Shown here in pieces: positions 1,629 to 13,307 of a DNA stretch of 64,000 nt (its first letter is position 1; each line of letters starts with the position of its first letter). The notes beneath the pieces are model-generated. The model made no database searches. It worked only from the letters and a program-made list of their open reading frames with translations, and was not told where the DNA came from. The DNA comes from Bacteroidota bacterium (lineage in GTDB: Bacteria; Bacteroidota; Bacteroidia; 2-12-FULL-35-15). The translations under genes and the position numbers were made by a program. The stretch covers positions 17,423 through 81,422 of the forward strand of contig JAZJZM010000019.1 in NCBI GenBank assembly GCA_040389865.1, in the 5' to 3' direction.

Positions 1629-4600
1629 TTGAACAAAATTACACGCATTATCATTTACACATTTTCCTTAACTCTCCTTCAATGGATTGGGTTAAGGACT
1701 GATGTATTTGCTCAACAAAATGTGGGTATCGGAACAACAAATCCTCACCCTTCCGCACGTTTAGATATAGCGGGTCCTAATCAGGGTTTGCTTATTCCCC
1801 GCGTATCCCTTGCATCCACTACCGATAATATTACAATTAACAATCCCGCAGTAAGTTTATTAGTATATAATACCAATCCATTGATGATTAATGGTGGATT
1901 GGGAATTTATTATTGGGATGGGACAAAATGGATTCAGGCCTTTGGTCTTTTAGGCTCAACAGGTTCAACAGGTGTAACAGGAATAATTGGTATAACTGGC
2001 GCAACAGGAATTGTAGGTGTAACAGGGATGGGCTCAACTGGTGATACCGGCTCTACTGGCGACACTGGAGCCACTGGTACTACAGGTGATATTGGTGTTA
2101 CAGGTTCTACTGGCAGAACGGGTGCTACAGGCAGAACAGGTGCGACAGGTGCAACGGGTTCAACCGGTGATACAGGTTCAACCGGTGATACAGGTTCAAC
2201 AGGCGATACCGGTTCAACAGGTGTTACAGGAGCAACCGGCAGAACAGGCTCCACAGGTAGAACCGGCTCCACCGGAAGTACAGGTTCAACAGGAGATACC
2301 GGTTCAACAGGAGATACGGGTTCAACGGGTGATACCGGTTCAACAGGAGATACAGGTTCAACAGGCTCAACGGGCTCAACAGGTAGAACCGGTTCAACAG
2401 GCCCAACAGGTAGAACAGGTTCGACAGGTTCAACTGGCAGAACAGGTTCAACAGGTTCAACAGGAGATACAGGTTCAACAGGCGATACAGGTTCAACAGG
2501 TGATACGGGTTCTACGGGTTCCACAGGTTCCACAGGTTTTACAGGTATTACAGGTGTAACCGGTGCTACTGGTTCAACTGGTTCTACAGGTAGGACAGGT
2601 TCCACAGGTTCCACAGGTTTTACAGGTTCCACAGGTTCCACAGGTTCCACAGGTCATACAGGTTCCACGGGTTCCACAGGCTCAACCGGCTCAACTGGTA
2701 CTACCGGTTCAACAGGCAGTACCGGCTCCACCGGCACAACAGGTTCCACTGGCTCAACTGGTTCTACAGGGGCAACTGGTGATGTATATAAAACAACATC
2801 GTCCACTTCAATGAGCATAGCTATGGGAGGGCAATCATTTTTTGTAGGAACAGGTTTAGCATACACTACAGGACAGCCATTAGTTATTGCGAAGGATTCT
2901 TTAAATAGAATGAGTGGAATTGTTAGTACTTATAACCCGGTAACAGGATTTATGACTGTTAGTATAGCATCAGTGCTTGGTGGTCCTGGGCCTTTCTCCT
3001 CTTGGGCGGTTAACGTTAATGGTGTTCAGGGTATTGTTGGAGTAACCGGGATGTCCGGTTCTACAGGTTCTACAGGTTCTACTGGTTTTACTGGGGCTGG
3101 GTATATGGCAACTTCAAGCTCTACCCATAATTTTGGTACGGGTTCAACTTTAACTTTTACAACTCAGTCTGGTTTGGCTTATACTTCAGGGGCACGAGTT
3201 CGTGTATCAAATGCTACAGCTCCTAATGACTATATGGAAGGAATAGTTCTAAATTATGCCGGAACTGGTTTACAGATACTAACGGATTTTTCTTCCGCTG
3301 TTGGTAGTAACAATAATTGGAATATCAATTTGGCTGGTGATAAAGGCAGTGTTGGTACAACTGGAGCTACCGGATCAGGTTATCAGGCAACTTCAGCTTC
3401 AAATCGTACCTTTGGAACTGGTTCAAATTTAACTTTTACAACCCAAACAAATTTGGCTTACACTCCTGGGGCCAGGGTGCGTGTGACAAATGCTACTTCT
3501 CTTAATGACTATATGGAAGGAATTGTTCTAAGTTATGCTGGAACAGCCTTAAATATATTAACGGATTTTTCTTCCGCTGTTGGCAGTAACAATAACTGGA
3601 ATATTAATTTGGCTGGTGATAAAGGTGTTGGTAGTACTGGTGCTACAAGCAATACAGGTTCAACAGGTTCAACCGGTTCAATTGGTTTTACTGGATATAC
3701 TGGTTCCACAGGTTCAACCGGTTCCACAGGTTCAACCGGAGTTACCGGCTCTACTGGTTCCACAGGTTCCACTGGCGCAACAGGCAGAACAGGCTCCACA
3801 GGTTCTACAGGCTCTACTGGTTCCACCGGTTCTACCGGTTCAACCGGTGATACAGGTTCCACAGGTTCCACCGGTTCAACAGGCTCCACCGGTTCAATTG
3901 GTATTACTGGATCTACAGGTTCAACAGGATTCACAGGGGCTGGATATATGGCCACTTCAAATACAAACTTAACTTTTGGTACGGGTTCATTTTTAAATTT
4001 TACAACCCAGTCTGGTCTCGCATATACTGCTGGAGCAAGGGTAAGAGTAACCAAACTTGGCTTTGTTAATGAATATATGGAAGGTGTGGTTCAAAGTTAT
4101 GTTGGTACATCGCTGATCATATTAACTGACTTTTCCTCAGGAGTTGGAAATAATAATGCCTGGAATATTAATATTGCTGGTGATAAAGGGGGAATTGGTG
4201 TAACTGGAGCTACAGGCTCTGGGTATAAGGCAAGTTCAGTTACACCTGTAACTTTTGGATCGAGTTCATTCTTATCATTTCAAACACAGTCAGGTCTCGC
4301 ATATTCTGCAGGGGCTAGAGTTCGAGTGACCAAAGTTGGCTTTGTTAATGAATATATGGAAGGAATTGTTCTAAATTATAGTGGAACAACATTGGATATA
4401 CAAACTGATTTTTCTTCAGGCATTGGTCTTAATAGTAGCTGGAACATCAATTTAGCTGGTGATAAAGGTACATTTGGTATTACTGGCTCTACAAGTAATA
4501 CTGGTTCGACAGGTTCGACAGGCTCAACAGGCTCGACAGGTTCAACTGGTTCAACTGGTTCCACAGGTTCAACTGGTTCAACAGGCTCAACAGGCTCTAC

Positions 4601-13307: not shown

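Follow-up and report, generated by a model that had tools for sequence, protein, structure and literature searches.

Whether a collagen-type fiber can be built with almost no proline is the question raised by one gene of an uncultured member of the Bacteroidia. The window (positions 17,423 to 81,422 of contig JAZJZM010000019.1, assembly GCA_040389865.1), which is the whole 64-kb stretch of DNA that was analyzed, contained an open reading frame (ORF) at 1629-13307 on the plus strand, a single unbroken frame of 3,892 codons that starts with TTG and encodes long arrays of Gly-X-Thr triplets. The best explanation, held here with moderate confidence, is that the gene encodes a Sec-exported, probably homotrimeric collagen-like fiber that acts as an adhesin or recognition fiber; its triple-helix formation, surface location, and function are what we infer from the sequence. 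The gene is neither of phage origin nor a pseudogene, and it is no artefact; in composition and architecture, its product represents a new variant among bacterial collagen-like proteins and is part of an uncharacterized Bacteroidia fiber family.

Triplet repeats and selection on the stalk

Runs of at least five G-X-Y triplets comprised 640 triplets (1,920 residues), and 656 triplets were counted when runs of at least four were accepted. GST (433), GDT (42), GRT (35), and GAT (27) together accounted for 537 of the triplets in runs, and the remaining ~100 were GTT, GFT, GVT, GGT, and similar types. A preliminary description of this DNA, which had counted about 620 triplets and assigned all of them to these four types, was close with respect to the total but not with respect to the types. 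Thr occupied the Y position in 590 of the 640 triplets (~91%) and Ser the X position in 445, acidic and basic residues were found at 8 and 6% of the X positions, respectively, and three of the protein's 55 prolines lay inside the triplet runs. The Pfam Collagen model (PF01391) matched 18 stretches with an E-value of 8.4e-208, and the longest perfect run extended over 204 triplets, so that the giant, collagen-like, and essentially proline-free protein with Thr at Y that had been described before was recovered. In the in-register 9-nt units, bases 1-2 (the Gly codon) were GG in 539 of 539 cases, which excludes chance, and bases 7-8 were AC in 97%. Thr at Y is not remarkable by itself and is already the commonest Y residue among bacterial collagen-like proteins (PMC8968730); the unusual traits are Ser at X, the near-zero proline content (~0.25%), and the length.

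Orthologs were sought by scanning species-representative genomes, and the hits were in metagenome-assembled genomes (MAGs) labelled Bacteroidia or Bacteroidota. Three syntenic orthologs were identified (L002, L004, and L008), all of them intact and all with a TTG start, which together with the uninterrupted frame in the window agrees with the earlier view that the gene is not a pseudogene. L002 (4,063 aa, 678 triplets) had the same order of globular modules as the window protein, with blocks of 93, 9, 32, 187, 73, 27, and 237 triplets; in L004 (3,523 aa, 906 triplets) a single module separated blocks of 463 and 438 triplets, and in L008 (3,829 aa, 967 triplets) a single module separated blocks of 497 and 469. 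The identity of neighboring genes was 84-93% for L002 and 65-74% for L004 and L008, indicating that the gene is conserved at roughly the family level. Between the window and L002, equal-length collagen blocks gave dN/dS values of 0.14 and 0.08 at dS values of 0.86 and 1.24, and the globular modules gave 0.08, a constraint comparable to that of the collagen blocks. Judged by these ratios, the collagen stalk is under strong purifying selection.

Where the collagen blocks of the four orthologs (650-970 triplets) were briefly interrupted, Ser or Ala stood in phase in the place of Gly (6-11 sites in each protein); an additional single two-residue break at aa 136 was present in the window protein and L002 only, and perfect runs reached 163-242 triplets across the orthologs. 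Ser and Ala are the replacements of Gly that a triple helix tolerates best, and their in-phase occurrence as the only breaks argues for a packed triple helix. Strict Gly conservation, Ser/Ala-only breaks, and dN/dS values of 0.08-0.14 may thus be taken as indirect support for such a helix. The proposed fiber length of about 0.5 micrometer is correct as arithmetic (640 × 3 × 0.286 nm = 549 nm) and is valid only if the chains form a triple helix.

Both charges were located at X positions, and the classical Y-Gly-X salt bridges would thus be impossible within a homotrimer. Asp was found at alternate triplets (DSDSDS) and Arg or Lys at every third triplet (RSSRSS; RFSRF in L004, where aromatic residues accompany the basic zones). 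In three blocks of the window protein, acidic and basic clusters alternated at a repeat distance of 14.25-16.5 triplets; this periodicity lay beyond the permutation null for both long blocks and was borderline for block 1 (p = 0.0005 by one test, but not above the null maximum by the other). The period was 14.75-16.25 triplets in L002 and 14.0 triplets in L004 (power of 7.2 versus a null maximum of 3.8); for the long blocks of the window protein, L002, and L004 taken together, it was 14-14.75 triplets and exceeded the null. The alternation of acidic and basic triplets that had been noticed before is therefore real and, in the long blocks, periodic by permutation tests. Identity at synonymous sites rose only at lags of 1-3 triplets and did not peak consistently at 14-15. 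A recently copied unit is therefore not what the period reflects, and the idea that it survives from the recent duplication of a higher-order unit in the DNA was rejected. A lateral, half-period-staggered association of helices would be a reasonable reading of this pattern.

The DNA was less uniform than the protein. GST was encoded by 50 different 9-mers, which substantiates the synonymous variation among 9-bp units reported before, TRF detected 66-79% matches, and the longest exact in-frame repeat was 42 bp. Codon usage was more biased in the repeats than in the other genes of the window, repeated words of 18-36 nt were more frequent than in a synonymous shuffle, and adjacent identical units amounted to 11.7% versus an expected 5.9%. 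The order of codons is thus slightly more repetitive than the shuffle, which lends no support to the suggested selection against slipped-strand deletion, and an arrangement of codons that avoids repeats was rejected. An old array, purifying selection, and occasional duplications of 18-27 bp are sufficient to account for the synonymous diversity.

The TTG start was at the same position ahead of the signal peptide in all four orthologs (1629 in the window, 1124 in L002, 1343 in L004, and 746 in L008), and this conserved non-ATG start may limit the translation of a very large protein. Long ORFs of up to 696 aa were also present on the minus strand or in other frames over the collagen blocks (1934-2650, 4376-6076, 6446-7183, and 8138-10228); they were rejected as genes and arise because the GGN-NNN-ACN repeat is free of stop codons.

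Domain architecture and proposed assembly

The encoded protein began with a Sec signal peptide that was read from the sequence (aa 1-28, ending VFA/QQ; 1629-1712, including the TTG codon) and that was conserved, with its AQ/(Q) cleavage context, in the three orthologs. It was followed by a Bacteroidota-specific N-terminal domain of the PF26696 family (aa 29-105; 1713-1943), which is common to many Bacteroidota "tail fiber domain-containing" proteins, and then by a stalk of seven collagen blocks (93, 9, 32, 173, 74, 27, and 221 triplets) and ten globular modules of 78-79 residues each. Two of the modules belonged to subtype A and eight to subtype B, the latter arranged as four tandem pairs, each with a five-triplet linker between its members. 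All parts are on the plus strand. Block 1, with 93 triplets and alternating GDT/GRT zones (1944-2786), preceded the first copy of the 78-aa beta-barrel module of subtype A (2787-3020), and next came the block of nine triplets with tandem pair 1 (3021-3656), the block of 32 triplets (3657-3944), pair 2 (3945-4457), the block of 173 triplets with a charge period of ~14.5 triplets (4458-6014), and pair 3 (6015-6527). Farther along the stalk were an almost uncharged block of 74 triplets (6528-7193), the second 78-aa subtype A module (7194-7427), the block of 27 triplets (7428-7670), pair 4 (7671-8204), and the largest block, with 221 triplets, the perfect run of 204, and again a charge period of ~14.5 triplets (8205-10193). 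The C-terminal 1,037 residues were not collagen and consisted of a fiber region with an "NAW..GN.GT" junction and G-x-G/IG-rich repeats (10194-12494), which had homologs among Bacteroidota tail-fiber-domain proteins, and a tip domain of the Gly_rich_2 type (TNF-like plus glycine-rich), which ended in ...GYVIIYW (12495-13304).

When aa 29-105 were used as the query, 38 of 38 homologs were annotated as PF26696.1 (E-values down to 1e-35), an assignment that is indirect, through the annotation of homologs and not through a direct model match; the domain had no match in PHROG. A single beta-barrel module was predicted to fold on its own (pLDDT of 92). The profile of the ten copies retrieved 6,093 cluster representatives among 1.84 billion proteins, at least ten G-X-Y triplets were present in 94 of the 149 best module hits, and the flanking G-X-Y repeats in other proteins were typically ordinary and proline-containing. 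The module was also found on at least 91 IMG/VR viral contigs, where 59 of 67 host ORFs likewise contained G-X-Y runs, and a search of cultured phages returned one weak match only, to an Aphanizomenon phage. No Pfam model matched the module, which, being widespread and adjacent to G-X-Y runs, is a common, unnamed "collagen-associated" barrel family.

The junction motif after the stalk recurred behind collagen stretches of other Bacteroidota proteins, and the fiber region matched phrog_28766 (tail fiber protein, 1.5e-6). Positions 11286-11900 and 11925-12539 represented a recent tandem duplication of 205-aa segments with a spacing of 213 aa and 93% identity in both protein and DNA. The presence of a tail-fiber-type domain at the C-terminus, as initially described, was confirmed by Gly_rich_2 (PF21722; 38.3 bits versus a cut-off of 24.3), by phrog_863 (7e-35) and phrog_6202 (8e-13), and by a weak match of the profile of the last 270 aa to the Pam3 gp24 tail fiber (PDB 7ypx/7yfw; E = 0.005 over 184 positions). 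This domain was conserved across eight loci. In Pam3, the gp24 tip is TNF-like plus glycine-rich, trimeric, receptor-binding, and chaperone-requiring (PMC9608196). Gly_rich_2 was the only Pfam family on the non-collagen parts, NCBIfam gave no family on any of them, and PDB sequence searches with the N-terminal domain, a module pair, and the whole C-terminal region returned nothing meaningful.

The proposed mechanism of assembly starts at the tip. By analogy with Pam3 gp24, the TNF-like/glycine-rich tip would trimerize, fix the register of the chains, and nucleate a triple helix into which the Gly-X-Thr chains zip from the C- toward the N-terminus, with the barrel modules possibly acting as re-registering "knots" along the stalk. 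Identity to L002 was 85-97% for the N-terminal domain and the modules (65-70% for the last pair), with 90% at the N-terminus and 58% in the C-terminal region. A conserved N-terminus and a variable tip are the basis for a putative polarity with a cell side and a target side, in which the N-terminal domain would keep the fiber at the cell and the more variable tip, 0.5-0.6 micrometer away, would bind the target. The acidic (D-x-D-x-D) and basic (R-x-x-R) zones, repeated every ~14 triplets (~12 nm), might set side-by-side helices at a half-period stagger, and an adjacent periplasmic FKBP may help the fiber to fold.

Gene neighborhood and distribution of the fiber family

The gene that may encode this folding helper is located at 13739-14452 on the plus strand and is predicted to encode an FkpA/Mip-type FKBP peptidyl-prolyl isomerase (Pfam FKBP_N and FKBP_C) that is periplasmic and carries a signal peptide. 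It was followed by genes for a DUF3352 protein, a 545-aa ORF, a DUF5723-OmpA protein, and a small Lcl_C protein. The upstream gene (1-761, plus strand) ends with PKD and CHU_C, a type IX secretion system (T9SS) sorting domain, which places the organism in Bacteroidota. The PKD/CHU_C gene, FKBP, DUF3352, and DUF5723-OmpA recurred as syntenic neighbors of the orthologs. FKBP was downstream of the fiber gene in seven of eight related loci (L002, L004, L008, L003, L005, L006, and L007), or eight of nine when the window is included. DUF3352, the 545-aa ORF, and DUF5723-OmpA were rejected as partners of the fiber; their synteny was confined to the close clade, and the distant fiber loci lacked them.

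Five distant loci, L003 (Chitinophaga) and L005-L007 and L009 (Bacteroidales), encoded shorter fibers with the same N- and C-terminal domains and non-collagen stalks. The stalk would thus be exchangeable, and the giant collagen protein is apparently a clade-specific, lengthened version of a widespread Bacteroidia fiber. FKBP was located just downstream in four of the five (L003, 4533-5279; L005, 13425-14123; L006, 14255-14845; L007, 11242-11898), in two of them behind inserted mobile-type genes, and this neighbor is therefore kept even where the stalk is not collagen. FKBP may be a chaperone or folding helper of the fiber. In L003 and L005, a gene for a protein beginning "KLFENKGVRSHWDEAEE.." and other small ORFs were inserted between the fiber gene and FKBP. 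Large proteins ending in CHU_C were also found beside the fiber/FKBP pair (L003, 5469-11594; L005, 14146-18951; L006, 14982-19529); they were upstream in the window and downstream of FKBP at the distant loci, and their similarity to the window copy was weak (23-30%).

A paralogous collagen-like gene with the same PF26696-type N-terminal domain, followed by GST/GAT triplets, started at 61654 on the plus strand and ran off the window end (61654-64000), so that the genome contains at least two such genes. Its triplets were broken every 4-6 units by an in-phase Gly to Ser/Ala change (GSTSNTG, GSTANTG), which would strongly destabilize a triple helix. The paralog explains the GC content of 50% at the window end; the interpretation of this GC-rich end as rRNA was rejected, and Rfam detected no RNA in the window. 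A type II secretion system (T2SS) protein F family gene (59959-61107, plus strand) was directly upstream of the paralog, preceded by several ORFs without a Pfam match (55641-59124), and is a possible lead on the export of the fiber.

The rest of the 64-kb window was chromosomal, with genes for an Mla transporter, Hsp20, Usp, hybrid kinases, and others, and there were no phage genes among the ~38 ORFs scanned with Pfam. The small Lcl_C (DUF1566) protein (182 aa; 21743-22291, plus strand) was encoded 8 kb downstream of the fiber gene and was syntenic in L004 (69% identity). A baeRF family 3 eRF1-like protein was encoded near a protein with a phosphoribosyltransferase domain and a 141-aa ORF without a Pfam match (27737-28819 and 29714-30385, plus strand); these genes may form a small conflict or stress module that is unrelated to the fiber. 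Two very large hybrid sensor kinases were encoded at 37272-40676 and 41434-46944 (plus strand), the second of which (1,836 aa) was fused to CheB methylesterase and CheR methyltransferase domains.

Competing explanations and known systems

Several observations weigh against a collagen-like adhesin or recognition fiber. The synthetic peptide (Gly-Pro-Thr)10 is a random coil unless its Thr residues are galactosylated, as quoted in PMC11923368, and an unmodified Gly-Ser-Thr helix may thus be marginal. No glycosyltransferase was found among the ~38 scanned ORFs. The general O-glycosylation motif of Bacteroidota, D(S/T)(A/I/L/V/M/T) (PMC8550257), occurred once in 3,892 aa (DSL, aa 423), and the G-D-T-G repeats do not fit it because they carry Gly at the third position. 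The heavy Thr O-glycosylation predicted in the preliminary description thus found no backing in the window, although another glycosylation system may still act on the protein. Candidate stabilizers of a helix without proline include Thr/Ser hydration, length, terminal and internal trimer nodes, or a putative Thr glycosylation. At the N-terminus, structural comparison gave no confident relative of the PF26696 domain, and a related 1,512-aa collagen-like protein (P0200) contained a second PF26696-like motif (..GMLVPRMT..GLLIYNTD..) near its C-terminus, so the domain is not exclusively N-terminal and its role as an anchor is a guess. The protein carries no recognizable signal for export across the outer membrane; a T9SS sorting domain (Por_Secre_tail or CHU_C) was not detected on the C-terminal 1,037 aa by Pfam or NCBIfam at E ≤ 1, and surface exposure is accordingly an assumption. 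FKBP is separated from the fiber gene by 430 bp and is probably a transcription unit of its own, and the stalk offers it no proline to isomerize. The charge period was also weaker and looser in L008.

The same stalk could be read as a flexible, mucin-like, possibly O-glycosylated spacer or bristle that holds the tip off the cell. The near absence of proline, the unfolded state of non-glycosylated Gly-Pro-Thr peptides (PMC11923368), the frequent occurrence of Ser/Thr/Gly-rich low-complexity linkers in surface proteins, and the breaks of the paralog at 61654-64000 every 4-6 triplets all fit such a spacer. However, a spacer does not need Gly at each third residue, which was kept in 539 of 539 units, nor does it explain a dN/dS of 0.08-0.14 between orthologs at a dS of ~1, the restriction of tolerated replacements in four orthologs to in-phase Ser and Ala, the smallest residues, the ordinary proline-containing G-X-Y repeats that flank the same barrel module elsewhere, or a charge pattern that is periodic and conserved; this explanation is therefore regarded as rather improbable. 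A further option, in place of an individual adhesin, is a matrix or coat subunit in which the 14-triplet charge period would bring helices together side by side, so that banded fibrils, a sheath, or a biofilm scaffold would form. Across orthologs, the half-period spacing of acidic and basic zones is conserved, and recent duplication does not account for it; in L004 the basic zones come with aromatic residues, and the genome encodes at least two paralogs, all of which would suit a matrix. On the other hand, charges are sparse in the window protein, where 8% of the X positions are acidic and 6% basic, the block of 74 triplets is almost without charge, L008 shows a weak period, the ten bulky modules of each chain would be an obstacle to close side-by-side packing, and no cross-linking residues or enzymes were seen. 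A matrix function consequently appears unlikely.

A structural tail fiber of a prophage, tailocin, or contractile injection system is suggested by the match of the C-terminal domain to phage tail-fiber families and Pam3 gp24, and by the barrel module on at least 91 IMG/VR viral contigs. It is nevertheless very improbable, since the Sec signal peptide is kept in the orthologs, no phage genes were found among the ORFs scanned in the 64-kb window, the same chromosomal neighbors recur in genomes with 65-74% neighbor identity, and the N-terminal domain lacks a PHROG match. The least credible explanation, to which almost no weight is given, is an assembly artefact or a decaying repeat expansion without function. 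Repeats are hard to assemble, a contig assembled from short reads of the same organism (SRR26324623) breaks off within the gene, and many database homologs are partial; however, four independent assemblies contained intact frames of 3.5-4.1 thousand codons, the module order was identical in the window and L002, purifying selection is strong, and the DNA is not highly repetitive, its longest exact in-frame repeat being 42 bp. The collagen-like adhesin or recognition fiber thus remains the favored explanation. A bolder extension of it is that the proline-poor, hydroxyproline-free (Gly-Ser/X-Thr)n stalk is a true triple helix of 0.5-0.8 micrometer, longer than animal fibrillar collagen and with perfect runs of up to 204-242 triplets, in which a selected alternation of charge zones every ~14 triplets (~12 nm) would drive staggered assembly into banded fibrils. 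Bacteria would then have independently arrived at a counterpart of D-periodic collagen with proline-free stabilization; the proposal is improbable.

Among known systems, BclA (the exosporium nap of Bacillus anthracis/cereus, and BclA1-3 of C. difficile) resembles the fiber in its N-terminal attachment, its G-X-Thr stalk of variable length with Thr dominant at Y, and its distal C-terminal TNF/C1q-like trimeric head, and its product forms hair-like surface filaments. In contrast to the fiber, BclA consists mostly of GPT (Pro at X) with tens of triplets versus 650-970, is located on a Gram-positive spore, is glycosylated by known dedicated enzymes, and lacks internal beta-barrel modules and charge periodicity, and no sequence similarity was found between its terminal domains and the fiber. 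Pfam and NCBIfam recognized neither a BclA/C1q-like C-terminal domain nor an exosporium-targeting motif in the fiber, so that the likeness is architectural only. Streptococcal Scl1/Scl2 and other recombinant bacterial collagens are likewise hydroxyproline-free, and an adjacent trimerization domain nucleates their helices, but Scl relies on Pro at X and many charges, N-terminal nucleation, an LPXTG anchor, and ~50-80 triplets. Legionella pneumophila Lcl, also from a Gram-negative bacterium and exported via Sec, forms a trimeric "lollipop" whose N-terminal segment binds to the surface, whose stalk is collagen-like, and whose C-terminal head is adhesive (PMC11162425), but it has ~400 aa, Pro-rich GPQGLPGPKGD repeats, a DUF1566 head, and T2SS export; Lcl_C/DUF1566 had no match in the fiber protein. 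The cuticle collagen of Riftia pachyptila is also very long, with Thr at Y as a stabilizer, but this animal protein contains proline and galactosylated Thr and shares no common descent with the fiber. The glycine-rich tips of phages (Pam3 gp24, 7ypx; Salmonella phage S16 gp38) belong to the same families as the last ~190-250 residues, whereas the tip of the fiber caps a chromosomal, signal-peptide-bearing, collagen-stalked protein with a periplasmic FKBP gene instead of a phage chaperone gene beside it.

A further resemblance was to Bacteroidota PF26696 "tail fiber domain-containing proteins" (Dyadobacter, Taibaiella, and Flavobacterium; P0002, P0059, P0200, and L005), which share the signal peptide, the N-terminal domain, and the "NAW..GN.GT" junction and, in several cases, the Gly_rich_2 C-terminus and the FKBP neighbor. 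P0059 and P0200 also contained Pro-poor G-X-T triplets, and P0200 the same module. Unlike the giant protein, most of them are 700-1,500 aa long, their stalks being either other than collagen or collagen-like over short stretches only, and the C-terminus of many is a Peptidase_S74 chaperone domain instead. None of these proteins had been experimentally characterized in the literature searched, and searches on Bacteroidota collagen-like fibers, Gly-Ser-Thr collagen, PF21722, and PF26696 found no study of the fiber family. Many database homologs of the N-terminal domain were fragments that stop within repeats, which, together with the broken contig of the short-read assembly, indicates that such genes are systematically truncated in catalogues. 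The family is under-represented there because short-read assemblies usually truncate these genes.

What is known of collagen stability was learned on animal sequences rich in Pro/Hyp and on a small number of bacterial proteins rich in Pro or in charges. The fiber is a natural sequence with Ser at X and Thr at Y, maintained by selection over hundreds of uninterrupted triplets in four genomes and essentially free of imino acids, and whether a triple helix can exist without imino acids becomes directly testable with it. If it folds, it would represent a third regime of stabilization, via hydroxyl/hydration effects or glycosylation, and recombinant collagen materials could be designed on a very simple template of low immunogenicity. 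Furthermore, the locus exposes a widespread, unstudied Bacteroidia fiber family, in which an exchangeable stalk links a PF26696 head-end to a glycine-rich tip of phage type and an FKBP gene is the conserved neighbor, the sequences of which are already present, unannotated, in public MAGs.

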